Source: an uncultured Cytophagia bacterium
GTDB taxonomy: Bacteria; Zhuqueibacterota; Zhuqueibacteria; Thermofontimicrobiales; Thermofontimicrobiaceae
Length of the DNA: 64,000 nucleotides
Direction: 5' to 3'
Assembly: GCA_964605145.1 (NCBI GenBank)
Contig: CAZSBG010000003.1
Location: 55,028-119,027 of the forward strand
The notes beneath the pieces were generated by a model. It did not search any database and was not told the DNA's origin. It was given only the letters and a program-made list of their open reading frames with translations. Made by a program: the position numbers and the translations under genes. Each line of letters opens with the position of its first letter. Positions within the stretch are counted from its first letter, which is position 1. Positions 3,854-48,028 of this stretch are shown here, piece by piece.

Positions 3854-3956
3854 AACTGCATAATAAAATGAGAAATAATTTCAGCAGTTTTCAGTAGTGC
3901 TATTTCATAAAGAAAAATAGGAATTTATGGGACTTGCACCCGTCCCTTTTTATATT

Positions 3957-5756: not shown

Positions 5757-5842
5757 GTATCCACAATCTCGAAGCGACATTTTCAGGCTCCTGGTATTTT
5801 CAATCAAAAAATTCTTTATGAATTAACCTTATTTTAGAAGCA

Positions 5843-7137: not shown

Positions 7138-8385
7138 TTATTTCACCAATATCGCACCATACTTGCACCAGCGCGCGCATTGGGGAGTGCCGCCGCACAG
7201 ATCGCAAATGACAGGGAATCCTTCGCCGTCAAAATAGATCACGCTGAATGGGCACACCTCCGCGCAAACGCCGCATTTGTTGCAGAGTGATTTGTTCAAC
7301 TCGATGTGGCCCTTTTCATTGATGAACAACGCTCCCGGCGCGCACGATTTGATGCATTTTTCACACAGCGTGCACACGTTCACTTTGTTCAGCGGCGGCT
7401 CCTGATCCACCGGTTTGGAATCGATTCGCAGCCGCGCGCCGTCGATGCCAAATCTTGATTGATGCGCCTGAACGCAGACTGTTTCGCACACCAGGCATCC
7501 GACGCAATTCTTTGAATTGGCCCGCAATCGAATTTTGCCCTCGCGCGGCGCTTCATAAATTTCTTCGATGGTTTTGTAACCGTGGACGAGATCGCACAAA
7601 TCCTCCACCATTTTTTTTGGGTCTTTGGCTTTGGTCACATTTCGGCCAAACACGGTGCCGCTGGCCCCGGCGCGCAGGGCTTCATCGACCAACTCCAGTG
7701 CATCGCGGGGCACATCGGACTTGGCGCCGCCCAACACCAGCACCGGCACTTTGGACTGATCCACCAATTGCTTGAACGTCATCACATCCCCGGTGTACGG
7801 AATTTTCAGGGCGTCCGCCCCAATTTCGACCGCGATTCGCGCCGAAGCGATGAGGATTTCCGCAATGTTCACCCCGGTGACCATGCCGCCCACAGCCATG
7901 GGCTCGATAATGAGCGGCAGTCCCACCTTGCGGCATTCCTGTGCAAACACCGCCGCCTGCTCGATGTTGAGCGATTCAAATTCATCGCTGTAACCGATGA
8001 AATAATAAATCGTAATCGCCGAAACGCCTATATGCAGCGCGTGTTTGGCGCGGGAGGTCGCCATTTTCCTGAACTTGATCACCGGCAGCACATTGCTGAC
8101 ATTGGCGCCACCCAATCGCGGCAGGTTCATCCAGTCTGCGCGGGCGATGACCGCCGGCTTGTCTTTACCCTGAAACATGTGCCCCATACGCTGCACCGTG
8201 CCGAACGACATGAGCACGCCATCGGCTCCCCCGGCAATTACCTGTGCCAGAATATTCTTCAAATTGATCACATTGGCCGTCGGGTCGGACATCCAGCCGT
8301 GATCCGCCGCTACACAGACCGCTTTTCCATCGGCAGGATTGAACAACCGATTCATCCTGGCCGTTTTGCCTGGACTCGAATACAT
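7138..8385 (-). CDS. DhnA-type class I aldolase domain fused to a C-terminal 2x[4Fe-4S] ferredoxin domain
   Basis: The N-terminal ~270 aa carry DhnA/FbaB-family motifs (VCVAADHGWM; the Schiff-base lysine context GADALKIPYTG). The C-terminal ~140 aa carry two clusters, CVGCLVCETVC and CNKCGVCAEVCP, plus additional CxxC motifs. Confidence 0.7.
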   Translation of the reverse strand: MYSSPGKTARMNRLFNPADGKAVCVAADHGWMSDPTANVINLKNILAQVIAGGADGVLMSFGTVQRMGHMFQGKDKPAVIARADWMNLPRLGGANVSNVLPVIKFRKMATSRAKHALHIGVSAITIYYFIGYSDEFESLNIEQAAVFAQECRKVGLPLIIEPMAVGGMVTGVNIAEILIASARIAVEIGADALKIPYTGDVMTFKQLVDQSKVPVLVLGGAKSDVPRDALELVDEALRAGASGTVFGRNVTKAKDPKKMVEDLCDLVHGYKTIEEIYEAPREGKIRLRANSKNCVGCLVCETVCVQAHQSRFGIDGARLRIDSKPVDQEPPLNKVNVCTLCEKCIKSCAPGALFINEKGHIELNKSLCNKCGVCAEVCPFSVIYFDGEGFPVICDLCGGTPQCARWCKYGAILVK

Positions 8386-17090: not shown

Positions 17091-18878
17091 TTATCTCAGG
17101 AGGGCTTTGGCGATTTTACACGGCGTCGCCCCCAAATTTTCAACCCGGTATTTTCCAAGGCAGGCCGGCACAATGATCGTTTCGGAATAGTTAAAAATGA
17201 AAAATATGTTTGAATCACTGACTGACGAAAGCTTCACCGACTCACCTTCAACCAGGGTAAGCACATGAAATTTTCCATCGGTGTTGTCCTCCATCTTTCT
17301 GTCGAATTCCAATCTGAACACCACATGAAAAAATTCCCGCCGGTCGCCGATGAGATATTCAGCCCAGCCCCTGCCTGAACGAACCAGCTTCGGTTCCTGC
17401 ACGAGATTTTGCGCCACCCACTTTTTCCGCCGGAACCATTTTATCACGTTGAACGCATGCGCCACATGAATGGGCCGCATGACTCCGTTCAGATCCGGGC
17501 GCAGATGGTCGTAAATTTTGAACGTGTAGCGGTAGGTCGTGGCGCTGATTTCCAGCACCACCTGGCCTTCGCCGGAGCCGTGTACGGTACCCGGGGGAAT
17601 CATCAGCAAATCGTGTCTTTTGCTGGGCACACTGTTCACAAAATCGCGATAGTTGAAGCCAATCCCCTTCTCATCGGCTAATTTCGCGGCCTGGTGGAAT
17701 TCCTCCTTTTGGGTTTCGTCCTTCACCCCCAAATTGACGCTGGTTCCCTCTTTCGCCTCAACGATGTAGTACATTTCTCCCTGGTGATACGGTTCGTTAA
17801 AATGTTTACGGATGTACGGCGTTGGCGGGTGCACCTGTATGGACAGATCGCCGCCTTCCATTGTGTCCAGGTAATCGTAACGAATCGGGAATTCACCGCC
17901 GAATCGCCGTTTTGGCACATCGCCCATAATGCTATCGTAACCAAAATGGAAGAAGGTCGTCCACGGTAATTCCAATATTTCTTTTTGAACCGAAACGAGC
18001 AGGCTCATCTCCTGGGCAATCACCTCAAAACTCCACGCACAGTTGAGCCATTCGTCCGGGAGGTTGCGGACTTTTTTCAGCCATTGCCCGCCCCAGGGGC
18101 CAGGTTCGTACATGGGCTTAAGCCGAAACGGAGAAGTGGCCAGTGCACCAGCGATTTTGCGAAGAGCTGACAGCGAAATCAATTTCGGTGAATCAGGGAC
18201 ATTTCCATCGATGTAATAATCAGCCTTTGCCATCAAACTATTTCGATGTCGGTCATTGACTTGAAAATCAACATAATAAAGCTTTTTCGGACTGACGCTC
18301 TGCGTTTTCCCGGCCATCTGCGTCCATGTTTTCGAGCGCTTCAGAACCTCCTGCCGTGTTAAATCAATGTAGAAAATCGAATCATACAATTTTCGAAGCC
18401 GGCTCAGCGCTGCGCCGGGACCAAAGCAAATGACAAACTCCCGCGCTTCGGTCTTCTTCTTCGAACCGGATATTTCCTTCTTCAGCGAGGCTAATTTTTG
18501 TTTGTCGAATAAAGTGACCAAATCCTTCTTATAAATTCTTCCGAACACCGGATCATCGGTTAAAAACGGTGTCAACATTTCATCGATCTCGGACTGCGAT
18601 TTGAGCCCGCTTCCAACATTGAAAAAGGAAACGGAATATCCCCTCTCCGAAAGCTCCGCTTCCATCTGGCCGATTATGAATTGCCAGTCATTGCCAACAT
18701 ACCCATCCAGCGCGATTATCGCTGGTCTATTTTTATTCGGAAATTGGCTCGCATAAAGCTGATCCAGAAATCCGGCAATCGCCTTCCACCCCACAATCGT
18801 TTCATTGTCATTTTCGAGATTGATAAATGGTTGATTTAAAGCTTCTATTCTGCTCTCAAATTCTGCCTGAGTTGTCAT
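17091..18878 (-). CDS. Fusion protein: unknown ~250-aa N-terminal domain plus C-terminal type I mannose-6-phosphate isomerase (cupin)
   Basis: The C-terminal half has PMI type I hallmarks (YEPGPWGGQWLKK, SIQVHP, YHQGEMYYIVEA, and a second cupin region near the end). The N-terminal IIALDGYVGNDW...FVICFGPGAAL region is not recognised. Confidence 0.6.
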   Translation of the reverse strand: MTTQAEFESRIEALNQPFINLENDNETIVGWKAIAGFLDQLYASQFPNKNRPAIIALDGYVGNDWQFIIGQMEAELSERGYSVSFFNVGSGLKSQSEIDEMLTPFLTDDPVFGRIYKKDLVTLFDKQKLASLKKEISGSKKKTEAREFVICFGPGAALSRLRKLYDSIFYIDLTRQEVLKRSKTWTQMAGKTQSVSPKKLYYVDFQVNDRHRNSLMAKADYYIDGNVPDSPKLISLSALRKIAGALATSPFRLKPMYEPGPWGGQWLKKVRNLPDEWLNCAWSFEVIAQEMSLLVSVQKEILELPWTTFFHFGYDSIMGDVPKRRFGGEFPIRYDYLDTMEGGDLSIQVHPPTPYIRKHFNEPYHQGEMYYIVEAKEGTSVNLGVKDETQKEEFHQAAKLADEKGIGFNYRDFVNSVPSKRHDLLMIPPGTVHGSGEGQVVLEISATTYRYTFKIYDHLRPDLNGVMRPIHVAHAFNVIKWFRRKKWVAQNLVQEPKLVRSGRGWAEYLIGDRREFFHVVFRLEFDRKMEDNTDGKFHVLTLVEGESVKLSSVSDSNIFFIFNYSETIIVPACLGKYRVENLGATPCKIAKALLR

Positions 18879-19050: not shown

Positions 19051-20922
19051 CTAAATGCACCCTCTGCTTTTCATGAATCTGGCGAATCGCACCACTTCGT
19101 GCGGTTTGGCTAAAAACAACCGACCGCTGTCACCGCCATTTTTGGCAAAGGTCATGGCTTTTTGTACCTCGGCCAGACTCAATCCTTTGGACGCCAGCCC
19201 AAAATAACACGGCACAAATCCCCAAAATGGCGAATCCAGCCCAAGAATAATCCATCCTTTTTGATGGGAGTTGACGATTTTGTTCTCCCATTTCCGCAAA
19301 TCCGCGAACGGATCGAAGCTCCAGTGCTCTGATTGCTGGTTCAGCACGATGAAATTTTCACTCGAAAACAGAATTTCCGGAAACTGGTTTTCATGTTTGT
19401 AAGAGATCGCGTACTGGAACCCGGCCTCGGCTAACACCTCGAACTGCGGTTCGGCCGTGTTGTGCTTGTACTGCGGACACGCATCCTGGAATGAATAATG
19501 GCCGATGGGAAGATGCTTCTTGCCGGCGTAATGTTCGATCACCCCGAACGCCTGCTTCAGACTTTTGAGATAATGCTCCGGGCTGATGTAGCCTTTGGCT
19601 TCGGTGGCCGCGCCAATGCCGGCGCTCACGAGCAACGGTTCGATGGTTGGATAAACGCCCCCCATTTCTTTGCTGATGTACATCTGCTCGATTCCCTCCT
19701 CGGCGTATTCCCACCACGAACTGGGGAACGCCAGACCAGCGGTCAAACCATCGATGGTGTGCAAATCCAGAATCCGCGGTAACACTGGCAAATGTCCCAA
19801 ATCAGAAGCGTAATGCATGAAACATACCGGGATTTTGCCGTTCTCCAACTGGTCTATCAGAAAATCATCGCTGTATTCCTGCTGCCACGGCGGGATCACA
19901 TCCGGCAGCCAGTCATTTGGCATCTTGATTTTATTTTTGATGGTGATTCCCAATTCCACGTCGTGCACCAGCGAAAAAACGATGTTGTGCTTCGATGCAT
20001 CCGCGATGATCATGTCGTTGAATACCTGGCTGCCCCAGACCAGTTTGTTGCCGACAATGTCGGTCAACTCGCCCAACAATTCCACAGCCCGCGGCAGAGA
20101 CTGCACCGCGGCGATGGCAAGAATGCGGTCGCGCAAATATTTTGGCGTCCAGCGCAGGGTGATGGGATCGTTGCCCAGAGCGAATCCCTTTGCCTCTGAA
20201 ATCCAGCGTCGAGCGATCCGTTCGGTGATGGTGACGTAATTATCTTCCGGCTGTACCGAATCGATGATTTCCACTGCCAATCCAAGCTCTTCAAATCGCG
20301 CAGCCGCTTCGGTGGGACAAAAAATGAGATGGACTTTCTTCAATCCCAGGGAAATCAATCGCTGCCACTGGGAATCATCCAATTCACAATGAAATGCCAG
20401 CGCGTTCCGGAAGAAAATTTCCGGATAGCAGAAGGTATCCAATCTCGATTCCCCGGCAATTTTGAAATTACCCAATACAATTTTTTCGTTGGGAAAGGGA
20501 AGTGTTTCGGCCGAGAAAACCACAGCCTCTGTCGGAAATGGTTCATTGAATTGCTCAAAAATTTCAACATAAAAATCGACAAGCTCGTTCGATGTTTTTT
20601 TCACGATGGCGCCGCGATTCCGCGCTCGCAAAAAACGTTCGAATTGAATCGGCGCTTCTTCGGTCAATGCATAAAAATGAACCGAATCGTAAAAGTTGCA
20701 CAGGTAATAGAATTGCTCATCGTGCTTGTTTCCCGTGTACGGCAAGGCATCGCCGATGTCTGCCACACTGGGCCGGACCGCGAAATAACCATCGTAATCC
20801 ATTCCATGTTTTTCCGCTAACCAGGCTAAAACAGGCAACGCGGTCGCGCGAGCGGGGCAGTTTTCATGGCTGTAGAAAAATAGAAGATCGTTATTTTTAT
20901 GAGATTTTTCTATGTTTGACAT
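19051..20922 (-). CDS. Hypothetical 623-aa protein, probably carbohydrate-active (no confident family)
   Basis: Long ORF at native GC in a carbohydrate-metabolism neighbourhood. No catalytic motifs recognised. Confidence 0.4.
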   Translation of the reverse strand: MSNIEKSHKNNDLLFFYSHENCPARATALPVLAWLAEKHGMDYDGYFAVRPSVADIGDALPYTGNKHDEQFYYLCNFYDSVHFYALTEEAPIQFERFLRARNRGAIVKKTSNELVDFYVEIFEQFNEPFPTEAVVFSAETLPFPNEKIVLGNFKIAGESRLDTFCYPEIFFRNALAFHCELDDSQWQRLISLGLKKVHLIFCPTEAAARFEELGLAVEIIDSVQPEDNYVTITERIARRWISEAKGFALGNDPITLRWTPKYLRDRILAIAAVQSLPRAVELLGELTDIVGNKLVWGSQVFNDMIIADASKHNIVFSLVHDVELGITIKNKIKMPNDWLPDVIPPWQQEYSDDFLIDQLENGKIPVCFMHYASDLGHLPVLPRILDLHTIDGLTAGLAFPSSWWEYAEEGIEQMYISKEMGGVYPTIEPLLVSAGIGAATEAKGYISPEHYLKSLKQAFGVIEHYAGKKHLPIGHYSFQDACPQYKHNTAEPQFEVLAEAGFQYAISYKHENQFPEILFSSENFIVLNQQSEHWSFDPFADLRKWENKIVNSHQKGWIILGLDSPFWGFVPCYFGLASKGLSLAEVQKAMTFAKNGGDSGRLFLAKPHEVVRFARFMKSRGCI

Positions 20923-21155: not shown

Positions 21156-21192
21156 CTAAAAGCAATTAAAGAGGAGCGGCGTCCTTCGCTCC
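21156..21192 (-). terminator. Candidate intrinsic terminator after the COG0523 gene
   Basis: GC hairpin GGAGCG-N8-CGCTCC (21173-21192) directly after the stop codon. On the minus strand it is followed by TCTTTAATTGCTTTT. Confidence 0.4.
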
Positions 21193-21204: not shown

Positions 21205-22122
21205 TCACTCTCCCAGCAATTCCAAAAACCTTTCCTCAATTTCATCCTCATCAATATCCTGCCCGATGATAACGAACCGATTCAACCGGCTATCCTTATT
21301 GCTCGCAGGTGTGATGGACCACATTTCAGACGTGGCATCAACGAAATATACCTGATTTTCGATGGACACGAAGCCCTTCAACCGCATCACTTTTGAATCA
21401 ACGGTTTCCCGGAACTTGTCCCAATTCGCGTTGGAGAACGTGCCTGTTTTTTCCAGGGTCACGGAAATAACAGGATCGGGCCGGCCTTCGCCGGGACTTT
21501 CGCTGGCGCCGGCATCCGGATGTCTCAATTTTGTTAGCCTGTCTAACGGAAAATCCGCATATTGCGTTTCAATTATTTCTGCTGTAGAATTCATCGCTTT
21601 TACAGCTTTGACCACATCCGCCACCTGGGATTCAGAAACCAGGTCAGTTTTATTCACAAGCACCAAATCGGCGCTGCGAATTTGGGACGCTGGCGCTTTG
21701 AGGTTATCTTTAATTTTCATAAAATTCTGACAATCGACCACACACAGGCAGGCCTGCAATTCAATGTAATCCTTTAAATTGGGCAGTGCGAGCATTTTTT
21801 CCATTTCTGTGGTGTCGGCCAAGCCGGTCGCTTCAACAATGAGCAGGTCAGGCTTAATTTGGGTAGCGATCTTTTCCACCTCAAAAATGAAATCCGTGCG
21901 CACACAGATGCAAAACAGGCTGCCCTTGTTGAGTTCCACCTTTTCATAATTGCCCTGTACAAGCATTTCACCATCGATGCCCACTTTGCCGAATTCATTG
22001 ATTAGCAACACGGTTCGCTGGCTTTTGTAGAATTCGATCAATCGATTCAGCAGCGTGGTTTTCCCGGCGCCCAAAAAACCGGTCAGTAATATTGTTGGAA
22101 TCATTCCAGGTTTTTCAGCCAT
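21205..22122 (-). CDS. COG0523-family (CobW/YjiA/ZigA-like) metallochaperone GTPase
   Basis: G1 motif GFLGAGKTTLLN, metal-binding CxCC-like motif (SLFCICV) and a C-terminal CobW_C-like domain. It overlaps the upstream gene by 22 nt. Confidence 0.75.
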   Translation of the reverse strand: MAEKPGMIPTILLTGFLGAGKTTLLNRLIEFYKSQRTVLLINEFGKVGIDGEMLVQGNYEKVELNKGSLFCICVRTDFIFEVEKIATQIKPDLLIVEATGLADTTEMEKMLALPNLKDYIELQACLCVVDCQNFMKIKDNLKAPASQIRSADLVLVNKTDLVSESQVADVVKAVKAMNSTAEIIETQYADFPLDRLTKLRHPDAGASESPGEGRPDPVISVTLEKTGTFSNANWDKFRETVDSKVMRLKGFVSIENQVYFVDATSEMWSITPASNKDSRLNRFVIIGQDIDEDEIEERFLELLGE

Positions 22123-23774
22123 TCTTTAATCACCTCCACGGATGGGACTCGGCCAACCGATTTAACATTTTGATCAATTGTAATGATGGCCGGTGTGGAT
22201 GCCACACCATATTTATAAATTTCTTTTTCATCTTTCACATGTACAATTTCGACGAGGCTGCCTAATTCTTTCGCCGCCTGAACCACATTTTGCCACGCTT
22301 CATCGCACGTCTCGCAGCCATCACCCAGCATAATCAGTTTGCCCTTGTGCTGTTGTAATTTCATAAAAAATTTCTCGTTAATTCGTTCCTGGATGGCTTT
22401 TATTAACTCATCGCGAGATGGAATGGTGCTGACAAACTTAATTTTCCCATCGATGCAAATTGTGGGAATATTTTTCACCATCAAGCCCATCATGAATTCC
22501 ACGGACTCCTTTTCCTTGATTTTATGCTCCCGCCAGATGAGGAGATCGTTGAACTGCGGGGCAACTGTTTTCACCGCTTCCACCATGTACTGACAAGGCG
22601 CACACCCCTCAGAATCCAACGTGATGACATCGATGATCACTTTATCCGCCTGCCCATAATCAGCGAGATTGATCTTGGTTGCGACTTTTTCTCGCTTTTC
22701 CAGCAATTCACGAGCGACATCCAATTTATAGGGATCGTGGATGATTTCCGTGATGGCTATTAAATTTTTGGGTGGCACGGCGTATGGCAGGTCACAGCCG
22801 GGTGCAAGGATGAATCCGGTATCCCCGCCCACGTCAAGGCATTCAAGGGCATTCCGTTTGGAATCGTCTTCGCTTCCCATGAGTAATACGACAGTCAATT
22901 GCAAATTTCCGCCAAATGAAATGCCAAATTTTTGACAGATATTTTTCACATAATCCAGTGGGATGTTTTCATCAATGGACACGTTGTCCGGGCGTGTCTC
23001 GCACATGGCTTCAATATTTCTCTGGGCATGTCCGCACACGAAAAATGAGGAATAAGCGCCCTGTTTACGAATTTCATCGAAGAAATCCGTGGCTGCCGGT
23101 GTGACAAATTCACGAAAAGCTTCCGGCGAGATCTGGCTGGTCATGGGATCGACCATAGCAATGACGTCGCAGCCGGCTTCGATGTACATACGGGCCATCT
23201 TTTTCGCTATCTCATTTGAAAAATGAACCAGTTCTTTCACAGAATCCGGATTATCAAACATATCCATGAAAATATCGGTCCCTTTCAAATGCAGCGACAG
23301 GGTGAAGGAACCAGTGACAAGTCCGTATAACGCAACATCATCAGTCTCTTTTTTGAGCGTCCGGATAGCTTTTAAAATCTCTGGAATTCTGCCTGAATTT
23401 TCATCCGGAATTTTCAAATCGCTGATTGACTTTCCATTGGCCAGCACATGATCCACCACAGCCGGGGGATTGTCTTTAGACCATTGCAACTGGCAGCCCA
23501 TGGCCTCGGCTTCAATTTGAAGATCGAACATCACAGGAATGCCATCCGGTTTGTACTGCTTGATTGCTTCTTTGGCGCCCTGCACCATCAAATCACCTGA
23601 CTTCAAATATTCATCAGCCTTTTTCCCGATTAACGCGCCGCCATGGCAACCAACAAATGGCAGCCAGGGTGCGCGTTCGGTTTTTTTACCTTTCAATGCA
23701 TCGAATAAAAGTTGTTTGCTCATTTCATTGCCCTCTATTAATTTGAAATTGTATAATTGTCGTAACTCACCCAA
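22101..23774 (-). CDS. URO-D/MtaA-superfamily (methyltransferase-like TIM barrel) protein fused to two C-terminal thioredoxin-like CxxC domains
   Basis: The N-terminal ~350 aa are uroporphyrinogen-decarboxylase-family-like (ERAPWLP..., ...FILAPGCDLPYAVPP). Two ~85-aa thioredoxin-fold modules follow, with CAPC and CETC motifs and ...GVASTPAIIID..., typical of small redox-active disulfide proteins. An alternative start is Met18, at 23723. Confidence 0.65.
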   Translation of the reverse strand: MGELRQLYNFKLIEGNEMSKQLLFDALKGKKTERAPWLPFVGCHGGALIGKKADEYLKSGDLMVQGAKEAIKQYKPDGIPVMFDLQIEAEAMGCQLQWSKDNPPAVVDHVLANGKSISDLKIPDENSGRIPEILKAIRTLKKETDDVALYGLVTGSFTLSLHLKGTDIFMDMFDNPDSVKELVHFSNEIAKKMARMYIEAGCDVIAMVDPMTSQISPEAFREFVTPAATDFFDEIRKQGAYSSFFVCGHAQRNIEAMCETRPDNVSIDENIPLDYVKNICQKFGISFGGNLQLTVVLLMGSEDDSKRNALECLDVGGDTGFILAPGCDLPYAVPPKNLIAITEIIHDPYKLDVARELLEKREKVATKINLADYGQADKVIIDVITLDSEGCAPCQYMVEAVKTVAPQFNDLLIWREHKIKEKESVEFMMGLMVKNIPTICIDGKIKFVSTIPSRDELIKAIQERINEKFFMKLQQHKGKLIMLGDGCETCDEAWQNVVQAAKELGSLVEIVHVKDEKEIYKYGVASTPAIITIDQNVKSVGRVPSVEVIKEWLKNLE

Positions 23775-23807: not shown

Positions 23808-26800
23808 TTACTTCAACAATAGTAGCTTTCGCTGCTTCACCACTTCACCGACCTGCATTCTGTAGAAATATACGCCGCTTGAAACCGCCTGTCCCGCAGA
23901 ATTCAGCCCGTCCCATTCCGCCACATGAAATCCACTGGTTTGTTCCGCATCCACAAGCGAGCGAACCAATTGGCCACTCACATTGTAGATTTGAAGTCTC
24001 ACGCGAGCCGGCCGGGGCAGTTGATACCGGATCGTGGTTTTCGGGTTGAATGGATTGGGATAATTCTGAAACAGGCGATACGATTCGGCTGGTTGAGAAT
24101 TATGCGCGGCGATTCCGGACACGGTGAAATTCGCCCTGACAGTTTTCACCTCATGCGGAATGAGTGAGACCTGCACGCCAGCCTCTGTTACCGAAGCCGC
24201 CGATGTTTCATTTTCCACGCCGTCCGTCACGCTGGCCGAACTCCACCTGAAGATATCCGAAGACAGCGTTGCATTGGCTGTGGTTCCGGCCCATTCCAGC
24301 AGCCGAAAAATAGCACCATTCCCATCTTCGGCCTGTTTGGCATTCACCAACATCACATTAGCCGGCACCACATTGAAAAAGCTTGCGGCCGGTTCCCGAA
24401 ATTTACCGTTCGGATTACTGTCCACCAATTCAGCCAGCAGCGGGTTGCTGAACGCCCAATTGAATCGGGCTGACTGAACCTCATCGAAGGATCGGCTCTT
24501 CCCGCAGAACGAGTAGTGCATTACAATGAGCGGACTGGCGCCAGGCTCGCCAATGATGGGACCGACGCTTCCATCGGCGAACATGCCCTCATCCTCTTTT
24601 TTGATGAAGCGGGAAATCAGTGTGGCCGCAGTCGGGTTGAATTCCGAATTGAGTCCGTGGAATTTTTCGAACTCCACCACGAACGCTTCGCGGTTCGCCC
24701 AATTTATGGAATACGCGCCGTCGCTCATGGCGCCCCCGTGCTGGATGGCGAAATATCCGCGCGGCGCCCCGGGCAGGTGATCGGTGGCCGGATTCAAAAA
24801 TCCATGCGCGCCTTCCAGGCGTACCTCAAAATTCGGCAGATCGAATGGAAACGTGTAGGCATAATATTCGAAATTAATATTCTGCGGAACCCAATCCATC
24901 AAATCGCGATCCGCAGTGTTCACAATATCCACGCGGTCGATATCGTTGTAGAGCCAGATTTCGGTTCGAACGATGGGCGTGCCGGTTCGGGTAATCACCA
25001 GGACTTTGGCCACATCGCCCTGAATCGACGTATCCATCTGGGCAACACCTGATGGAATGGACACATAACTTCCCCCGGCAGCCTCTGCGCTGTTCGCCTT
25101 GATGCAGCCGTTGAAGCTGTGCTCACTCGCAATGTTGACCAGCTCGCGTTGTTCCCGTTTGTCATAAATACTGAGAATGCTCCCATCGACTGAACTGACC
25201 TCAATCCGGTAAAAATCGTTTTCAATGGCAGGCTCGACGAAGGTCTTTGTATTTTCAACCAGCGGCTTTTCATCAGGCGATTCTTTTCCGGGCGAGGCCA
25301 CAAGTTTATAAATTTTGTACCCAATCGAAGGAACATCCTTTGCTGCGAACAGAATCTCCCCGGTCGATTCAATTTTCTGACAAGCAATTGCGCTGTCGTT
25401 CGCGGCGTCGATCAGCGAAAAGCTTTGATTCAGCCATTCGTTGTTCAACGGCATTTTCACAACATCGGTTCGATCCCAGGAAAGCGGATTGAAAACCAGT
25501 ATCGAAGGCGACTTCGTCTGGACTTCTGCTGCCAAATTCGCAAGCCCTGTTTCAACCAGAAAGCAGGACGAATCGTACGCGTCTTTGGCATAATGAAACG
25601 CAATCTCACTTTGATGCCGGGCTTCATCGTAAGTCATTAAACCGGGCCACGGGGTGCCGCCGCCGCTGTGCTCGTCGAATTGCAGCATGTTTTCATAAAT
25701 GCCATTCATTTCCGCAGCCGGATATTCCGAAGCCTGCACCGACAAATTAATGAGCGAAAGTTTTTCCGCCGTGGTGGCAAAGTCATGCGCCGCGCGATTC
25801 ATTCCCATGCTCTGCGGCGTGTTGAGCGAGATGTGATCCCAGCCTCCGCTCCAGTCACCGCGATAGGTTTCGAACTGGCTCCCGTATTTTTCTTCCAAAT
25901 GAATGAAAAAATCTTCCGGCCGCGCCACAATCAGTTTCGGATTGGCATAGCTTTTATTCCACAAACTGGTCATACCGACGTGCAGCGTATTCGGTTCGGT
26001 ATTTTCAATTTTCCCGACCATAATCATAATCGCGTCATAGGGATAGCCGGCTGCTTCCAACCGTGTCAATTCATTGTACAGCGCCTCGTAAAATGTGGTT
26101 ATATGCGACATTTCAAAGGTGGTGTACCATTCGATATAGCTGCCATAGCTGATCCATGTGAGCACTTTGCTGCCATCCGGTCCCTGCCAATAAAACGGAT
26201 TGTGCGCGGCCGGCAATTTCGGACCGCCGCCAAACGCATCGTTAATGCCGGTTGCCATGTATTTCACCCCGGCTTTTGCCAGCGCCGAGGGCATTGCCCA
26301 GGCATAGCCGGGCACATCGTTCTGAAAAATTGTGTTCAATTTAAATCCAAATTCCTGCCGGTACTTTTCCGCCGGGTAGAGGAATCGATTCAACTCCTCG
26401 GTGCCCAGTGTGGCCGAGTGCATGGTAGCGTAGCCGGCGCACATGTCCATTCGGCCGGATTGTACCAGTTCCCGGAAATGGTCAATTTCCGCGGGAGTAC
26501 TTCGCTTCAGCCACTGCTCCAATTGCCAGATGCTTTCAATTGTCCATTTGTAGGTGGGAATATTATCGATGTAGTTGATGGCTTTATCGATGATGGTTTT
26601 GTACTGATCCGCCACAACATCCTGGGGATCGGTGAAGCCGATGTCGAGATGCGTGAAATGCACGAGGTAAATGTATCGAATCGGCGACGCAATGCCTGGC
26701 TGGGCAAAATGAAACGCGCCCAAATCTGCAATGGTCCCGTCCGGGTCGACTTCGCTGGCAGGGTCGCCGGCATCGATGCAGGGCGAGCCGGGGCTGAGTC

Positions 26801-28109
26801 CGTAGAACAACGAATCCGCGCCGGAAAAAAGCGGATCCGCCGAAATAGCGCCCTCTCCCCCGTCGCAATTGAGGTAATCACCGCCGGCGTTATTCCAGAC
26901 GTCATTGTAGGAGATGGTCACGTTGCCCCGGGCTTTGACGCCGAAACCACTTGCATTGACAAAAATATTATTAAAAAGTGATAACGTCGAGCCGTAACTT
27001 TCCAGTCCGTTGTGATAATCGCTCAGCGTATTATTATAAAATGAGCTGCCGGAACAGAGATTGAACACCGCGGCGATGTTGCCGGAACCGGTGAGGAGAT
27101 TGCGGGAGATATCGACGACGCTGCTGTTTGCGTCGATGCCGATGGCGCACGAGCGTATGGCATTGGCCCGAAAAACCAGTTCGCTGTTCAAGACCTGAAT
27201 GCCCATGTCCTGGCTGTTTGTTCCGAAAAACTCATTGTCCGTCACCGACAGACCATTGGAGAATTCGATCGAAATTCCTCCCTCTCCGGACGCGAGCGAG
27301 AATCGATTATCTGCAATCACCACACGATCCGCCGAATGGATTTCGACCAATGGAAATCCCGTGCCGGAATTCTGCACGACTAAATTTTTTATCGTCGAAG
27401 CAGTCGCGCATTGAATCACCGATCCCTCGCTGTTGCCGTCAACAACTATTCCTTCGGGTGAAGCGCCTGCCAGTGTGATGCCCGGGGATAAAACAAGATT
27501 TTCAATATAGGTTCCCGGGGAAATATAAATAACCACGCCGGAATCAGCCGCATTAATCGCTTGCTGAATGGTGGGATAATCGCGCGGCACCTGAATTTGC
27601 GCAACCACACTGACCGGATTGTCGAACGAATAATCGTACACATTGCCCCAGCCGGTATCGTAGCCCAGGGCATCTTCGCCCAATGTGTAGCTCAACTGAA
27701 AATCGCCCAATTGCTCGCCGGCGCGCAGCGTGCACGTGAGCGTGGCCGGGATAATTTCTTCATCCGCCAAAAATGATTCGGATGTGAGGAATCCTTTCCA
27801 AACATAATCAGGCCCGCTTGGATGCACAACTTCGCAGGAATCGGCCCAGTACCGGCTTGGCAGAAAATCACCGCTGCCAAACTTGGCGCTGTTGTACTGC
27901 ACGCTGAGAACGTCCCAGTCGTTGGGCACGAGCACGGTAAAAAACACCGCGTGCGGATTCGGGTCTGTATCCTGACTGTGAATATCCACGGTAACTGTCA
28001 TGACATCATTCGGCGCCACTGTTGTCTGCTGATGCACAACATCGATTTCCAGGCAGCTCGTAAAAAGAACAACACCGGCCAGGACTATCAAAATAAAATG
28101 TTTGGACAT
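23808..28109 (-). CDS. T9SS-secreted giant glycoside hydrolase: right-handed beta-helix region, GH38-like (alpha-mannosidase family) core, type-A Por C-terminal sorting domain
   Basis: Lipoprotein-type signal MSKHFILIVLAGVVLFTSC. Beta-helix repeats (NNTLSDYHNGLESYGSTLSLFNNIFVNASG...). GH38 N-domain motifs LVHFTHLDIGFTD, SGRMDMCAGYATMHS and NDVPGYAWAMPSALAKAGVKY. C-terminal ...QNYPNPFNPKTTIRYQLP...GVYFYRMQVG..., a typical T9SS CTD. The ORF extends to 28142. Confidence 0.6.
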   Translation of the reverse strand: MSKHFILIVLAGVVLFTSCLEIDVVHQQTTVAPNDVMTVTVDIHSQDTDPNPHAVFFTVLVPNDWDVLSVQYNSAKFGSGDFLPSRYWADSCEVVHPSGPDYVWKGFLTSESFLADEEIIPATLTCTLRAGEQLGDFQLSYTLGEDALGYDTGWGNVYDYSFDNPVSVVAQIQVPRDYPTIQQAINAADSGVVIYISPGTYIENLVLSPGITLAGASPEGIVVDGNSEGSVIQCATASTIKNLVVQNSGTGFPLVEIHSADRVVIADNRFSLASGEGGISIEFSNGLSVTDNEFFGTNSQDMGIQVLNSELVFRANAIRSCAIGIDANSSVVDISRNLLTGSGNIAAVFNLCSGSSFYNNTLSDYHNGLESYGSTLSLFNNIFVNASGFGVKARGNVTISYNDVWNNAGGDYLNCDGGEGAISADPLFSGADSLFYGLSPGSPCIDAGDPASEVDPDGTIADLGAFHFAQPGIASPIRYIYLVHFTHLDIGFTDPQDVVADQYKTIIDKAINYIDNIPTYKWTIESIWQLEQWLKRSTPAEIDHFRELVQSGRMDMCAGYATMHSATLGTEELNRFLYPAEKYRQEFGFKLNTIFQNDVPGYAWAMPSALAKAGVKYMATGINDAFGGGPKLPAAHNPFYWQGPDGSKVLTWISYGSYIEWYTTFEMSHITTFYEALYNELTRLEAAGYPYDAIMIMVGKIENTEPNTLHVGMTSLWNKSYANPKLIVARPEDFFIHLEEKYGSQFETYRGDWSGGWDHISLNTPQSMGMNRAAHDFATTAEKLSLINLSVQASEYPAAEMNGIYENMLQFDEHSGGGTPWPGLMTYDEARHQSEIAFHYAKDAYDSSCFLVETGLANLAAEVQTKSPSILVFNPLSWDRTDVVKMPLNNEWLNQSFSLIDAANDSAIACQKIESTGEILFAAKDVPSIGYKIYKLVASPGKESPDEKPLVENTKTFVEPAIENDFYRIEVSSVDGSILSIYDKREQRELVNIASEHSFNGCIKANSAEAAGGSYVSIPSGVAQMDTSIQGDVAKVLVITRTGTPIVRTEIWLYNDIDRVDIVNTADRDLMDWVPQNINFEYYAYTFPFDLPNFEVRLEGAHGFLNPATDHLPGAPRGYFAIQHGGAMSDGAYSINWANREAFVVEFEKFHGLNSEFNPTAATLISRFIKKEDEGMFADGSVGPIIGEPGASPLIVMHYSFCGKSRSFDEVQSARFNWAFSNPLLAELVDSNPNGKFREPAASFFNVVPANVMLVNAKQAEDGNGAIFRLLEWAGTTANATLSSDIFRWSSASVTDGVENETSAASVTEAGVQVSLIPHEVKTVRANFTVSGIAAHNSQPAESYRLFQNYPNPFNPKTTIRYQLPRPARVRLQIYNVSGQLVRSLVDAEQTSGFHVAEWDGLNSAGQAVSSGVYFYRMQVGEVVKQRKLLLLK

Positions 28110-28304
28110 GCATTCTCCGGAGTTTATTGCTTCAATATACAAAATAAAATAGAAAATATCTTGTTTAATTGTGTTGTATTTTTGTCATATCTTGCTGAAG
28201 CATTTTTTGTCTTTGATAAAAATCAAAACCTCATTTTACCAAATTCGAGAAAATTAGTTTCTCTGAATTCAATTTTTTCAACCCATGATTTAATAATTTA
28301 TGTC

Positions 28305-28505: not shown

Positions 28506-29525
28506 TTAATTTTTATATCGTTCGAACGCATCAGCAGAACAAAAAGCAGCAACATTGGCTTTAGGAGTGCCAGGCGGAACTTCACAGCCGGGACTGAGAA
28601 TGAGCCGGCCCTTTCCTTCGGTGAGACATTTCGTCGCAGATTCGAATATTTTTTCGGGTGAAGATTTAAGAAGAATTTCGACAGGGTCAAAATTGCCGCA
28701 AATAACTGTTTCCGGAGGCAGGTATTTTAGCGCCTCGTCAATGGGCACCATCCAATCGAAATCGATGATGTCGGCGTTGATCTTGAATAAATCAGGCAGG
28801 TGATTTGTGATATTTCCGCAGATATGAACTTTGACGCGAGCATTGTGTTGATGAATGAATTCGACCAGCTTGACATGTTTCGGGAAGATTAATTTCCGAT
28901 AAAGCGCCGGTGAAATCAAAGAAACCGCTGCATCGCCGATGCCTATCCAGTCAGCCCCGGACTGAATTTGCGCCAGTGCAAAACTTTTCTCCAGTTCAAT
29001 GACAAAATCAAGAAGCTCGGAAATGAATGACGGTTCATCGATTAAATCCAGCATGAGTTCATTCATTCCCCGCAGGTTGGTCATCTGCGCCATCGGTCCC
29101 TCGATCCAGCCGAGGACTGGCATGGCGACTCCGAATTTTTTCCTCAGCAGAGCACACGCCTGCAATCGATCGTTCATTCGCGGATTTTCCCGGGGAATTG
29201 GTATTGGTGGAAAATCGAAATTGTCAATATTCTCGATGGGGCGAACCAGGCATTTGGGGACATTGTCCGCCGGGTATTCGAACGTTCCGCCGACGGCTTC
29301 GGTCTCGCGGTACGGATCGGAAATTACCATGGCCATATCGAAGGAAAATCGCTCGTAGCAGCGAAACACCGCTTCGACCAGGATTTTATGATCAAGATAA
29401 AATTCCCGGTACGATTTGTTGATGAATTCGGCGGCATACCGCATCATTATCGGCGTCACCAACGGCCGGTCGATGATCTCGTTTTTTAGGAATTTTCCGA
29501 GCCTAAGGGCTGAATAAATATTCAT
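28506..29525 (-). CDS. URO-D-superfamily protein with an MtaA/CmuA-like zinc-site signature (putative methyltransferase)
   Basis: 339 aa. HxCG motif (KVHICGNITNHL) and LILSPGCEVPPGTP are characteristic of the zinc-dependent MtaA/URO-D family. Confidence 0.65.
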   Translation of the reverse strand: MNIYSALRLGKFLKNEIIDRPLVTPIMMRYAAEFINKSYREFYLDHKILVEAVFRCYERFSFDMAMVISDPYRETEAVGGTFEYPADNVPKCLVRPIENIDNFDFPPIPIPRENPRMNDRLQACALLRKKFGVAMPVLGWIEGPMAQMTNLRGMNELMLDLIDEPSFISELLDFVIELEKSFALAQIQSGADWIGIGDAAVSLISPALYRKLIFPKHVKLVEFIHQHNARVKVHICGNITNHLPDLFKINADIIDFDWMVPIDEALKYLPPETVICGNFDPVEILLKSSPEKIFESATKCLTEGKGRLILSPGCEVPPGTPKANVAAFCSADAFERYKN

Positions 29526-29688: not shown

Positions 29689-30708
29689 TCATCTTACAAC
29701 AGTCATCGCTGCGGTTTTAACAACATCGAGCAAATCGAAAACGCGGGCAAAATAATGATCCCGGATTTCGAATTTGGTTTTCCCGATGCCCTTCAGTTCA
29801 TTGCCAAGCGCATCGATGAATTTGCGCAATCGTTTCTGGTGAATGCCCAGCTTCGCCTGCACCGGGTCGGTGATGATGCCGGCAAAGGATGTAACGATTG
29901 CCATGGCCGCCATGATCGAGCCGGTGGCGGCGGCAATCAGCCCCAGTGATGCAGACGCGGGAAAAATACTGTACCAGACTGAGCCCAGCGCCGAGCCCAG
30001 GAAAAAATTGGAAATAGCTGCCTGCTGTGCGATGACCGTTGCAACTGCGCTGCCGGTGGCCATGGCGCCCGGGGTCATCTGTTTGAACAGCGTCGTTCCC
30101 ACAGCAATGGTGATGATGCTCCCGGCCAGGTCCGCTGCGGCTGTTCGGCTCGTGGAATATTCCTGCAAATTTTTCTCAAGCATGGCGCGGAATTTCGGGT
30201 CCTTTGATTTCATCTTTATCGTCGACAAATATTTCACGAACAAACCTTCAATTCCCGGCTGGTTGAGGATTTTTTCGAAAAGTGCGTCTTTTTCGGAAGT
30301 TCGCTTTCCCTGCTCAAAAGGTAGCTCCAGCAATTCCGTGTAAATGAGCCACTTCACTTCTTTTTGAACTTTCGTCTCGAATCCGCGCGGTAGTTTGTTT
30401 ATTCCGAATGAAACGCTTTTAATCCCAACCAGTTTGAAAACAGAACCCACAGCCCGGAATCCGGTGAACACCAGCGACCACGTGATATTAATTGGGCCTT
30501 TGATAATATCCGCGCCCAACGCCTTTTTGTGCAATTTCAACGCACCACGCAACGAGAAATATTTCTTCACAAAGCCGTGCACTTTTTCCTGCCGGGATTC
30601 TATATAAATATCAATGGCCCGATTTATTCCATCGGCGACGATCTTTTCTTCTGCGTCAGCGTCATTTTTCAGGTTATCCTTTTTCATATTTTTTTCAGAA
30701 TTTCCCAC
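29689..30708 (-). CDS. Hypothetical protein with Ala/Gly-rich hydrophobic segments, translationally coupled to an acyl-ACP thioesterase
   Basis: 339 aa. Hydrophobic stretches AADLAGSIITIAVGTTLF and ATGSAVATVIAQQAAISNFFLGSALG...LGLIAAATGSIMAAMAIVTSFAGII. It overlaps the downstream gene by 25 nt. Confidence 0.45.
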   Translation of the reverse strand: MGNSEKNMKKDNLKNDADAEEKIVADGINRAIDIYIESRQEKVHGFVKKYFSLRGALKLHKKALGADIIKGPINITWSLVFTGFRAVGSVFKLVGIKSVSFGINKLPRGFETKVQKEVKWLIYTELLELPFEQGKRTSEKDALFEKILNQPGIEGLFVKYLSTIKMKSKDPKFRAMLEKNLQEYSTSRTAAADLAGSIITIAVGTTLFKQMTPGAMATGSAVATVIAQQAAISNFFLGSALGSVWYSIFPASASLGLIAAATGSIMAAMAIVTSFAGIITDPVQAKLGIHQKRLRKFIDALGNELKGIGKTKFEIRDHYFARVFDLLDVVKTAAMTVVR

Positions 30709-31457
30709 TTTGTCCTCATCCGAGTTAATTCCTTGCCATCTTTTTCACGAACGATCTGATGAACGAACGCCGGCGCTTCGCCATCTTCCACCTTTTCTGT
30801 TCTGGAAAGAACCCGATCCCCGTAAAACGCCTCGCCGCGAAACGCCGCTTCGATTTCGGAAAGATGATAGTTTTTCAAAATCTCCTGGGGCACCGTTTCA
30901 ATTCCCCATTCGATGGATGTCACGTGATTTACATGATTGTTCAAATCCAGGTCGTGCATGCGCGCGCGGAACGGAAGCTCGATTTCAGGATTATTGATTT
31001 TTGGCAGGGATTCAAATTTATCGTCGATCATCCGTTTTGGATTGTGGGGATAATCCGGTAAAAATTCCGCCGGCAGCACCGGTTTTTTCGTCTTCAAATC
31101 GAGCAAGATCCAAGAGCTTGTGCCCAACACCATTGGATTGTCTTTTTCATCCACCATTTGAAATTCGCGCAGCGAAAAAAACGTATCCCTCGTGGACGGC
31201 CATGTGTTGATTTTGATTTGCTGGCCCCAGGAAGGATAGCAGTCAATTTTGATGTGGTATCGCGACAACACCCACGTTAAATTTCGCGCGAACAAATCGA
31301 CGACCGAAGCACCCAACCGACCGGCATGATCGGCAGCCATTTCCTGAAGAAAATTGAAAATCGTCGATAATTTTACTCGCGCTTTCGCATCCACTTCATA
31401 CGTTCGAATTGTAAAATTTCGTGTGTAAATATTTTCCAAACGATTCCTCCAATACAT
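30684..31457 (-). CDS. Acyl-[acyl-carrier-protein] thioesterase (FatA/FatB-like)
   Basis: N-terminal hot-dog motif FTIRTYEVDAKARVKLSTIFNFLQEMAADHAGRLG, 257 aa, tandem hot-dog layout. Confidence 0.7.
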   Translation of the reverse strand: MYWRNRLENIYTRNFTIRTYEVDAKARVKLSTIFNFLQEMAADHAGRLGASVVDLFARNLTWVLSRYHIKIDCYPSWGQQIKINTWPSTRDTFFSLREFQMVDEKDNPMVLGTSSWILLDLKTKKPVLPAEFLPDYPHNPKRMIDDKFESLPKINNPEIELPFRARMHDLDLNNHVNHVTSIEWGIETVPQEILKNYHLSEIEAAFRGEAFYGDRVLSRTEKVEDGEAPAFVHQIVREKDGKELTRMRTKWEILKKI

Positions 31458-47080: not shown

Positions 47081-48028
47081 TTACTTCTGATTTTGCTGAA
47101 AAACCTCCAATAGCTCCTCGCTGACTGAATACGGCGAACGCTTTTTATTGATAATCTGTTCCAGCCGGGTGGCCAACTGGTCTTCAATTTGAGGCTGCCA
47201 GAACTGTTCGAGCAACCTGGATTTTACAATTTGCCGTACATAATGTTCAATCCTCGCTCGATGCTTTTCAACACGAATATTGGTTTTGTTCTGATATTTT
47301 AAATGGTCTGTCAGGGCGAGAACCAGTTCTTCGATCCCTTCTCCAGAATTTGCTATGGTTTTAACCAGGGGAGGATTCCATCTGCGTTTTTCTTTGCCCA
47401 GCTCCAGCACATAGTTTAATTCCATCAAGACGCGGTCTGCGCCCTCGCGATCCGATTTGTTGATACAAAATACATCCGCGATTTCCATCAGTCCGGCTTT
47501 CATGGCCTGAATGGAATCGCCGGACTCCGGCACGAGCACGACCGCGGTCGTATCAGCCGCTTCGACAATATCCAGCTCGGACTGGCCCACACCGACTGTT
47601 TCGAAGATGATGATATCCATTCCAAATGCATCCAGTAAATCTGCGGCTTCCTGCGTCCTCATGGCCAATCCTCCCAGGCTTCCCCGCGTGGCCATGCTTC
47701 GGATGAACACGCCGGGGTCCAGGGCAAGGTCGCCCATGCGAATCCTGTCGCCCAACAGCGCGCCGCCGGTAAAGGGGCTGGTCGGGTCCACGGCGATGAT
47801 GCCCACTGTTTTTTTCTGGTTTCGGTAATATTTTGTCAATTGATTGACCAGCGTACTTTTCCCGGCGCCGGGAGGGCCGGTAATGCCAATGCGATAACTG
47901 CGTCCGGTTCGATAATAGACTTTATCGAGCATCTGAACCGCGCCATCGGTTTCATTTTCAATGAGAGAAATCAGGCGAGACAACGCGCGTCGGTCGCCGG
48001 ATAAAAATCGTTTCACTAAATCTTCCAT
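47081..48028 (-). CDS. meaB: Methylmalonyl-CoA mutase-associated G-protein MeaB/ArgK family GTPase
   Basis: P-loop GITGPPGAGKSTLVNQL, and 315 aa with the MeaB-like layout. Confidence 0.8.
   Translation of the reverse strand: MEDLVKRFLSGDRRALSRLISLIENETDGAVQMLDKVYYRTGRSYRIGITGPPGAGKSTLVNQLTKYYRNQKKTVGIIAVDPTSPFTGGALLGDRIRMGDLALDPGVFIRSMATRGSLGGLAMRTQEAADLLDAFGMDIIIFETVGVGQSELDIVEAADTTAVVLVPESGDSIQAMKAGLMEIADVFCINKSDREGADRVLMELNYVLELGKEKRRWNPPLVKTIANSGEGIEELVLALTDHLKYQNKTNIRVEKHRARIEHYVRQIVKSRLLEQFWQPQIEDQLATRLEQIINKKRSPYSVSEELLEVFQQNQK

Follow-up and report, generated by a model that had tools for sequence, protein, structure and literature searches.

A thioredoxin-fused MtaA-like protein and its overlapping G3E GTPase gene: a widespread pair very probably belonging to corrinoid methyl-transfer systems

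A 64,000-nt stretch of DNA from an uncultured Cytophagia bacterium of the phylum Zhuqueibacterota (assembly GCA_964605145.1, contig CAZSBG010000003.1), hereafter called the window, contains two overlapping genes, one for a URO-D/MtaA-like barrel fused to two thioredoxin (Trx) modules and one for a CobW/COG0523-like G3E GTPase. We report that this gene pair is conserved across phyla and is very probably a corrinoid methyltransferase component with a dedicated GTPase partner. Both metal-related motifs of the pair depart from their known relatives: the barrel has an invariant phenylalanine in place of the histidine zinc ligand of MtaA, and the GTPase motif has lost its third cysteine.

Results

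Domain architecture of the fusion protein

All coordinates refer to the whole window. The pair lies on the minus strand, and residues of the fusion protein are numbered from ATG 23723. The listing of open reading frames (ORFs) in the window gives two overlapping minus-strand ORFs, 22101..23774 and 21205..22122. Read from TTG 23774, the first would encode 557 amino acids (aa), 17 codons more than from ATG 23723. A GAGGG ribosome-binding site (23731-23735) is located 7 nt 5' of this ATG, a database protein 100% identical to the fusion comprises 540 aa, and the best 120 of more than 5,700 related database proteins measure 538-552 aa or are shorter fragments. For these reasons ATG 23723 is probably the start, with TTG 23774 left unused. 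The fusion gene (22101..23723) then encodes 540 aa, consisting of the barrel followed by Trx1 and Trx2.

The original prediction of a URO-D/MtaA-like barrel joined to two thioredoxin-fold CxxC modules was borne out by Pfam, NCBIfam, AlphaFold2 and Foldseek. The TIM-barrel domain (aa 1-345; 22689..23723) belongs to the URO-D superfamily, matching PF01208 at E 5e-62 and 210 bits against a gathering cut-off of 23.9 bits. TIGR01463 (mtaA_cmuA) scored 163 bits, under its 235-bit cut-off, and PRK06252 and the MtaA/MtbA equivalogs likewise stayed under theirs (158 vs 244, 145 vs 400 and 125 vs 600 bits). Judged by these profiles, MtaA/CmuA-type proteins are the closest curated families, but the fusion is outside their trusted range. 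An AlphaFold2 model built on 87 homologues (mean predicted local distance difference test score 88, predicted template modeling score 0.73) shows the barrel joined by a short disordered linker to two minimal thioredoxin folds. The top structure in Foldseek was MtaA (4AY7), with a template modeling (TM) score of 0.90, a root mean square deviation of 2.0 Å and 25% identity; the matches of the barrel to MtaA and to many HemE structures had E values of 1e-15 to 1e-21.

The thioredoxin fold of the C-terminal modules was supported by Pfam, NCBIfam, a match to a solved structure and the AlphaFold2 model. PF13192 (Thioredoxin_3) matched in two stretches (E 1e-25; 89.6 bits against a cut-off of 24.8), and TIGR00412, the MTH895 thioredoxin-like family, scored 92.3 bits against a cut-off of 62. 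In the model each module follows the order beta-alpha-beta-alpha-beta-beta-alpha, with the CxxC at the N-terminus of helix 1 and a proline before strand 3; P420 and P511 occupy the Pro-loop positions, as in thioredoxin folds of the MTH895/redox_disulf_2 type. Domain 1 (aa 361-458; 22350..22643), delimited by partial matches to TIGR00411 and PF00085 and by its modelled fold, carries C-A-P-C (cysteines C374 and C377) at 22593-22604, with P420 as the cis-Pro candidate and C423 close by. Domain 2 (aa 459-540; 22104..22349) holds the best PF13192 stretch and the TIGR00412 match, resembles MTH895 (1ILO) by sequence and carries C-E-T-C at 22305-22316. Both modules had been predicted to be redox-active, which agrees with the conservation of the first one only: its CxxC is present as C-[A/P]-P-C in 87/87 members, while the second, present here, is not conserved in the family (both cysteines in 27/87, neither in 42/87). 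One-thioredoxin relatives have no second module at all.

The overlapping GTPase gene

The second gene (21205..22122) encodes a protein of 305 aa if read from ATG 22122, or of 299 aa from ATG 22104, the start in the NCBI gene call. It matched the G-domain model PF02492 at E 6e-41 (140 bits) and CobW_C (PF07683) at E 4e-10 (39.9 bits). Walker A (GFLGAGKTT, 22054-22080), ExxG (EATG, 21823-21834) and NKTD (21643-21654) are all intact, which together with CobW_C gives the domain composition of a COG0523-type protein; the match to the YjiA structure 1NIJ had an E value of 1e-13. The 22-nt overlap with the end of the fusion gene described originally holds if translation begins at ATG 22122, which has GGAGGTG upstream, and shrinks to a 4-nt ATGA overlap from ATG 22104. 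With either start the genes overlap, which implies translational coupling.

COG0523 proteins are defined by a conserved GCxCC/CxCC metal-binding motif (Haas et al. 2009, PMC2770081). The CxCC-like motif ascribed to the GTPase did not withstand closer inspection: the sequence is G-S-L-F-C71-I-C73 (21904..21924) followed by Val74, so that the third cysteine of GCxCC is absent. Among 70 orthologues C71 is found in 70 and C73 in 69, and the next residue is never cysteine; in all of about 120 aligned partner GTPases the motif reads G-S-x-F-C-x-C followed by V, L, T or I. The protein also scored below the cut-offs for CobW (TIGR02475, 99.5 vs 332 bits), ZigA (NF038288, 93 vs 600), YjiA-like proteins (PRK11537, 65 vs 361) and MeaB (PF03308, 13.9 vs 23.1).

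A GC-rich, terminator-like hairpin with a T-rich tail (21173..21192, minus strand), found by a consensus scan alone, starts 13 nt past the GTPase stop and weakly suggests a bicistronic unit. Terminator and promoter scans yielded counts in this region no greater than in shuffled sequence, and we therefore base operon boundaries on gene spacing only.

Distribution and gene linkage

A database search returned the more than 5,700 related proteins mentioned above, the best 120 of which share the architecture at 57-100% identity. In a scan using one genome per species, at least 583 species genomes encode the fusion, with at least 54% identity among the matches listed. The hosts among these matches are KSB1/Zhuqueibacterota, KSB3, Planctomycetota, Verrucomicrobiota, Lentisphaerota, Kiritimatiellia, Chlamydiota, Bacteroidales, Spirochaetes and Clostridia, and the listed carriers include cultured Mariniphaga strains and metagenome-assembled genomes of Draconibacterium. 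Clustering at 50% reduced the family to about one representative. Its nearest relatives are one-thioredoxin barrels of 455-461 aa and unfused barrels of 333-372 aa.

For gene linkage we sampled 166 loci (86 genomic, 80 metagenomic), among them 114 with the two-thioredoxin and 40 with the one-thioredoxin form. A locus was counted only if it had 1.5 kb or more of sequence downstream, and the GTPase had to be homologous, on the same strand and downstream. Within 3 kb it was present in 80 of the 90 two-Trx loci (immediately adjacent in 56) and in 18 of the 19 one-Trx loci (immediately adjacent in 17). Hence, the adjacency that the original prediction had put forward is conserved, at about 89-95% of loci with enough flanking DNA, as is the fusion itself, in the 114 sampled loci and the at least 583 species. 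The same architecture in more than 100 independent assemblies rules out a frameshift or assembly artefact.

A split version of the arrangement occurs in one locus (L088), where the gene order is URO-D, a 100-aa Thioredoxin_3 protein, cobW, a RACo activase and another URO-D. The stand-alone Thioredoxin_3 protein carries CAPC and is orthologous to domain 1 of the fusion (45% identity). This fusion/fission pattern, combined with the adjacency across phyla, is strong evidence that the barrel, thioredoxin domain 1 and the GTPase act together, and the conserved functional partnership first proposed from the window is thereby upheld.

The metal site of the barrel

In the alignment to 4AY7, the MtaA zinc ligands His240, Cys242 and Cys319 correspond to Phe228, Cys230 and Cys310 of the fusion. 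The segment F228-V-C230-G-H232 (23028..23042) takes the place of the MtaA zinc motif H-x-C-G, and Cys310 (22794..22796), within P-G-C-D, matches the third zinc ligand. Phe228 and Cys230 are each present in 87/87 aligned members, and Cys310 and Glu252 (22968-22970) are invariant too. Position 232 varies (77 His, 6 Gln, 4 Asp), with Asp, Asn or Thr in sister clades. The clade signature of the barrel can be written as F-x-C-G-[H/D/N] ... D-E-N ... P-G-C-D. Every neighbouring URO-D paralogue, including the window gene 28506..29525, keeps the histidine of the canonical H-x-[C/D]-G.

The zinc dependence of MtaA-type enzymes, on which the original prediction had relied, does not simply carry over: two cysteines and the glutamate of the MtaA/CmuA site His-x-Cys...Cys (+ Glu) are kept, but the histidine ligand is Phe. 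That zinc, or any metal, is bound by the fusion barrel is something we infer from these residues. UroD-type methyltransferases acting on sulfur or selenium retain both cysteines and O-methyltransferases lose both (Kountz & Balskus, PMC10418091). Since both are retained here, the barrel probably carries a thiol-directed site of the S/Se type.

Corrinoid gene context

A corrinoid link had not been noticed originally. It is absent from the window, in which tblastn and Pfam searches detected no corrinoid protein, homocysteine methyltransferase, activase or MttB, and it is clear in the relatives. A B12-binding protein with DxHxxG is encoded directly upstream in 34/101 two-Trx and 16/28 one-Trx loci. 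One locus has the order URO-D, corrinoid protein, URO-D-Trx, RACo (L087), and another that of tripartite ATP-independent periplasmic (TRAP) transporter, corrinoid protein, MttB-family methyltransferase, URO-D-Trx (L089). A stand-alone homocysteine S-methyltransferase (PF02574) is located between or beside the pair in 39/114 two-Trx loci, mostly of Bacteroidales, and in 0/40 one-Trx loci; in 22 loci the pair is followed by a protein with the activation domain of MetH (PF02965). The KSB1 operon L083 combines fusion, GTPase, corrinoid protein, URO-D, homocysteine methyltransferase, MetH-activation protein and a further URO-D. A cobalamin riboswitch (116 bits; L083 3763..3957, plus strand) lies 4 kb upstream and was the only one in Rfam scans of the window and 13 loci, in which no S-adenosylmethionine (SAM)/methionine riboswitch was found. 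Because relatives adjoin corrinoid proteins, RACo, MttB and MetH-like modules, we place the pair in corrinoid methyl-transfer systems.

AraC- and LacI-type regulators occur near the relatives' loci, with GntP, TRAP or ATP-binding cassette (ABC) transporters adjoining. These regulators and the lack of SAM riboswitches in the scanned sequences point to an inducible rather than a housekeeping function.

In four Planctomycetota/Anaerohalosphaeraceae loci (L036, L038, L039, L041) a conserved gene run upstream of the pair encodes a ParA/NUBPL-type P-loop ATPase with 4Fe-4S domains, a NUBPL ATPase joined to a domain resembling the FeMo-cofactor-binding domain of dinitrogenase, and a protein-isoaspartate methyltransferase. 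The run may add more genes of metallocentre assembly. Some Prolixibacteraceae operons (L032, L060, L073) carry a nucleotidyltransferase/HEPN pair, a toxin-antitoxin-like module at about 9640..10360 in L032 and L060, between the fusion and homocysteine methyltransferase genes.

Other genes in the window

An unfused URO-D/MtaA-like gene of 339 aa (28506..29525, minus strand) with the full His-x-Cys...Cys zinc motif is located 5 kb upstream of the pair. Its orthologues, at 37-41% identity, adjoin the fusion gene in four loci (L014, L083, L094, L162), and its product may on that account be a substrate-specific partner methyltransferase. Directly upstream of it lie genes for a DUF6635 protein (29689..30708, minus strand; E 2e-47) and then an acyl-ACP thioesterase (30684..31457). 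A MeaB-type G3E GTPase is encoded at 47081..48028 (minus strand; PF03308, 306 bits), so that the genome has an adenosylcobalamin-mutase chaperone apart from the CobW-like protein.

The gene before the pair (23808..28142, minus strand) ends 85 nt before the fusion gene and encodes a 1,444-aa protein resembling alpha-mannosidases of glycoside hydrolase family 38, with FlgD-Ig and type IX secretion C-terminal sorting domains. The sorting domain is suggestive of a host from the FCB group or one akin to KSB1, and in the close relatives L007 and L012 the pair is likewise preceded by this giant gene. Downstream of the GTPase, 19051..20922 and 17091..18878 (minus strand) encode proteins of 623 and 595 aa with no Pfam match, and their homologues occur in the same order in KSB1-like loci (L007, L011, L012). 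An unusual fusion of a DeoC/LacD-family aldolase domain with a C-terminal 4Fe-4S dicluster ferredoxin domain is encoded at 7138..8385 (minus strand). The segment 3927..5837 has a raised G+C content, 0.53 vs about 0.46, and carries long ORFs on opposite strands that overlap one another (3957..5807 on the minus strand; 3927..4685 and 4770..5837 on the plus strand).

Discussion

The domain identities, conservation, synteny, fusion/fission pattern and association with corrinoid components are supported directly by our data. We give an even chance to a model in which the two genes form one unit of a corrinoid methyl-transfer system and the GTPase and the CAPC domain build or repair a two-cysteine metal-thiolate site on the barrel; which metal is bound, which substrate is used, which way the methyl group flows and how the thiol/metal relay works are parts that we infer. 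The barrel, an MtaA-like methyltransferase of a distinct clade, would exchange methyl groups with a separate corrinoid protein, and Cys230 and Cys310, with Glu252 and possibly His232, would most likely form a metal-thiolate site activating a thiol-type substrate. Trx1 with its invariant CAPC and the co-translated GTPase would be dedicated maturation or repair factors of this site: the thioredoxin domain would keep the two active-site cysteines reduced or receive the metal, and the GTPase would hydrolyse GTP to insert it, presumably as zinc. The CAPC pair could supply the missing third cysteine of the GTPase during hand-over, a sharing of ligands suggested by the loss of that cysteine together with the presence of a client-borne cysteine pair. 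The second thioredoxin fold would be a degenerate duplicate with a structural role. In the fuller operons, methyl groups would be exchanged with homocysteine through the separate PF02574 module, and the system would amount to a MetH-like enzyme split into proteins, with the fusion taking the place of the folate-binding module. Metallation or repair of the barrel site by the GTPase is the simplest model because the GTPase is tied most tightly to the fusion gene and because G3E GTPases act as metal insertases (PMC11672702).

Several points weigh against this model. The GTPase is without the high-affinity CxCC site that defines zinc-type COG0523 proteins. On the side of the barrel, the canonical histidine is missing and residue 232 is variable, and the site may for this reason bind no zinc, or another metal. 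Corrinoid protein, homocysteine module and activase are all absent from the accessible surroundings of the pair in the window and in most KSB1 loci, and the corrinoid link of the window pair would hold by homology to other loci. Moreover, the role of the fusion is not fixed: where it occurs with MttB it looks like a second methyltransferase, from methyl-corrinoid to acceptor, and where it is paired only with the homocysteine module it looks like a first one, from donor to corrinoid.

Going further than this model, the fusion and the CxC-type GTPase could be the core of an unrecognised folate-free corrinoid pathway in which the metal is held jointly by the GTPase cysteines and CAPC. Methyl groups would pass from methylated thiols or other methylated substrates to the corrinoid protein and on to homocysteine or another thiol, and the pathway would be widespread in anaerobic polysaccharide degraders (KSB1, Planctomycetota, Verrucomicrobiota/Lentisphaerota, Bacteroidales). 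We put this forward tentatively, as a possibility of low probability; if true, the thioredoxin domain would be the first case of a COG0523-like chaperone docking on a domain that its client encodes.

Different explanations have to be weighed against a maturation role. The one that survives best, which we still consider improbable, makes the thioredoxin catalytic: the barrel would methylate or demethylate selenide, methylselenol, arsenite, sulfide or persulfide on its Cys pair, and CAPC would resolve the resulting disulfide or mixed selenosulfide. In a variant, a disulfide-type methyl donor such as dimethyl disulfide or dimethyl diselenide would be reduced before demethylation. In either case the GTPase would hand over or remove a soft (metalloid) ligand. 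The barrel keeps Cys-Cys and has lost His, and CAPC resembles the reductase-type CGPC, both of which fit this proposal. Also in its favour, a part in methyl-selenide metabolism is ascribed to the UroD-type proteins Mlp2 and SdmC, and selenide is methylated by ClMlp2, as is sulfide to a weak extent (PMC10418091, PMC11097638). The best specific NCBIfam matches of Trx1 include thioredoxin-like (seleno)protein families and the GTPase matches a 'CobW-related selenoprotein', all below cut-off, but these matches are weak and generic for the fold. Against a catalytic thioredoxin, no selenium, arsenic or sulfur-metabolism gene recurred in the 166 loci, and selenocysteine, as in-frame TGA, occurred there at no Cys position of fusion or GTPase. 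The partners that do recur, homocysteine methyltransferase and MetH-type modules, indicate methionine-linked methyl transfer.

Less probable again is a service to cobalamin itself, by which the GTPase and thioredoxin would gate corrinoid loading or cob(II)alamin ejection from a partner corrinoid protein in the manner of MeaB, with the barrel as docking platform and the CAPC domain supplying reducing equivalents. G3E GTPases include MeaB, a chaperone of B12 enzymes, and CobW, which delivers cobalt; a partner GTPase without the zinc-type CxCC would suit such a task, as would the corrinoid proteins, RACo and MetH-activation proteins that co-occur with the pair and the cobalamin riboswitch of L083. 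Yet the GTPase is linked to URO-D-Trx in 89-95% of loci and to a corrinoid protein in 34-57%, the pair often standing alone, and it scores as cobW (140 bits), not as MeaB (14 bits), a true MeaB being encoded in the same window. Several loci already encode activases of their own (RACo, PF02965), and a dithiol, at about -270 mV, cannot alone reduce Co(II) to Co(I).

More doubtful still is that the fusion is the methyl-donor module of a split housekeeping methionine synthase, folate-using or folate-independent, whose barrel, like the related one of MetE, would be the binding site of methyl-tetrahydrofolate or another central donor, and that the pair is conserved for making methionine. The operon order B12-binding protein, fusion, PF02574, GTPase, PF02965 does mirror a MetH in which the folate domain has been exchanged, Foldseek places MetE barrels among the distant relatives in structure (E about 1e-6), and the very high sequence conservation across phyla reported above would suit such a function. 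But the homocysteine module is confined to about a third of the two-Trx loci and missing from the one-Trx loci, as counted above, no SAM/methionine riboswitch was found upstream in the 13 loci and the window, and AraC/LacI regulators beside GntP, TRAP or ABC transporters are typical of catabolic operons. Folate-binding methyltransferases of such systems also use the pterin-binding fold, not URO-D.

Nearby genes for glycoside hydrolases, sulfatases, sugar transporters and AraC/LacI regulators suggested a methylated-sugar O-demethylase. We regard this as less likely: such genes are common in these genomes, none of them is found repeatedly, and a site that keeps its Cys pair speaks for a soft (S/Se) ligand (PMC10418091). 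Finally, although many database records read 'uroporphyrinogen decarboxylase' and PF01208 is named after HemE, an ordinary HemE beside a cobalamin-biosynthesis CobW, or an assembly or frameshift artefact, is hardly conceivable given 76.6 bits against the 302.95-bit cut-off of TIGR01464, P-F-V-G-C-H-G in place of the N-terminal arginine motif M-R-Q-A-G-R of HemE, MtaA as best structure, a GTPase short of the CobW cut-off and no tetrapyrrole-biosynthesis neighbours.

Taken as a chaperone and its client, the pair would have wider consequences. To our knowledge, the clients of COG0523-type GTPases are largely unknown, with a handful of pairs established. Here, about 90% adjacency across phyla, translational coupling and thioredoxin fusion/fission name one specific candidate client, and the systematic alteration of both the chaperone metal motif and the client metal site makes for a concrete, testable pair, for which Mariniphaga and Draconibacterium provide cultured hosts. 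The fusion family would constitute an overlooked, very widespread methyltransferase clade in non-methanogenic anaerobes. MtaA-like corrinoid systems, usually tied to methanogens and acetogens, would be common in fermentative heterotrophs of sediments and guts, some of them wired to homocysteine-methylating and MetH-type reactivation modules, which would matter for how methyl groups, methionine and possibly methyl-sulfur or methyl-selenium compounds are cycled in anoxic habitats. With regard to annotation, thousands of 'uroporphyrinogen decarboxylase' and 'thioredoxin family protein' entries could be corrected.

Comparison with known systems

The methylcobamide:coenzyme M methyltransferases MtaA and MtbA share with the fusion the URO-D TIM barrel, the two Cys ligand positions and the glutamate, and like them the relatives of the fusion are encoded beside corrinoid proteins and corrinoid activases. 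Unlike them, the fusion has an invariant Phe for His, one or two C-terminal thioredoxin folds and non-methanogenic bacterial hosts, and it scores below the curated cut-off of every MtaA, MtbA or CmuA model.

COG0523 'subfamily 13' genes are clustered with mtaA/mtaB/mtaC/ramM in Methanosarcina, Methanococcus and Clostridium botulinum, and comparative genomics alone led to the proposal that this subfamily serves the zinc enzymes as a chaperone (Haas et al. 2009, PMC2770081). Subfamily 13 is likewise a CobW-like G3E GTPase encoded beside corrinoid-dependent methyltransferase genes; COG0523 as a whole is defined in that study by CxCC, where the GTPases studied here have G-S-x-F-C-x-C-[V/L/T/I], and these are paired, often with translational coupling, with one specific barrel that carries thioredoxin. 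The original prediction had regarded the arrangement as undescribed. In view of the clusters known since 2009, the general idea of a COG0523 protein serving corrinoid methyltransferases is not new, whereas the combination of a thioredoxin-fused barrel of the Phe type and a CxC-type GTPase appears to be undescribed: in our literature search, which covered full texts and few subscription journals, we found no account of the Phe-type barrel, of its fusion to thioredoxin or of GTPases of the G-S-x-F-C-x-C clade.

Type 1 mlp clusters and SdmABC of Methanococcus also combine UroD-type MtaA homologues with a corrinoid protein and a RACE/Ram activase, and their proteins are proposed to act on methyl-sulfur or methyl-selenium compounds (PMC10418091, PMC11097638). 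Both groups keep the Cys ligands, but Mlps have the complete His-Cys-Cys and the fusion is without the His. Mlps are found mostly in Firmicutes, the fusion family mainly in KSB1, the Planctomycetes-Verrucomicrobia-Chlamydiae (PVC) superphylum and Bacteroidales. The word 'GTPase' is absent from the main text of PMC10418091, and 'thioredoxin' and 'fused' occur in its reference list only.

As in MetH, homocysteine (PF02574) and B12-binding (PF02310/PF02607) modules, often with PF02965, come together in 39/114 two-Trx loci, here as separate proteins. Unlike MetH, these loci have no pterin-binding module, URO-D-Trx stands in its position and a G3E GTPase is added; the window is without the MetH-like modules.

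In the ZNG1-METAP1, Nha3-nitrile hydratase, CobW-cobaltochelatase and MeaB-mutase pairs, a G3E GTPase is likewise genetically tied to one enzyme. The putative chaperone-client pair described here, whose GTPase has a C-terminal CobW_C domain, differs from them in the non-canonical metal motif of that GTPase, and the fusion, unlike any GTPase client known to us, carries a thioredoxin-fold CxxC domain of its own.

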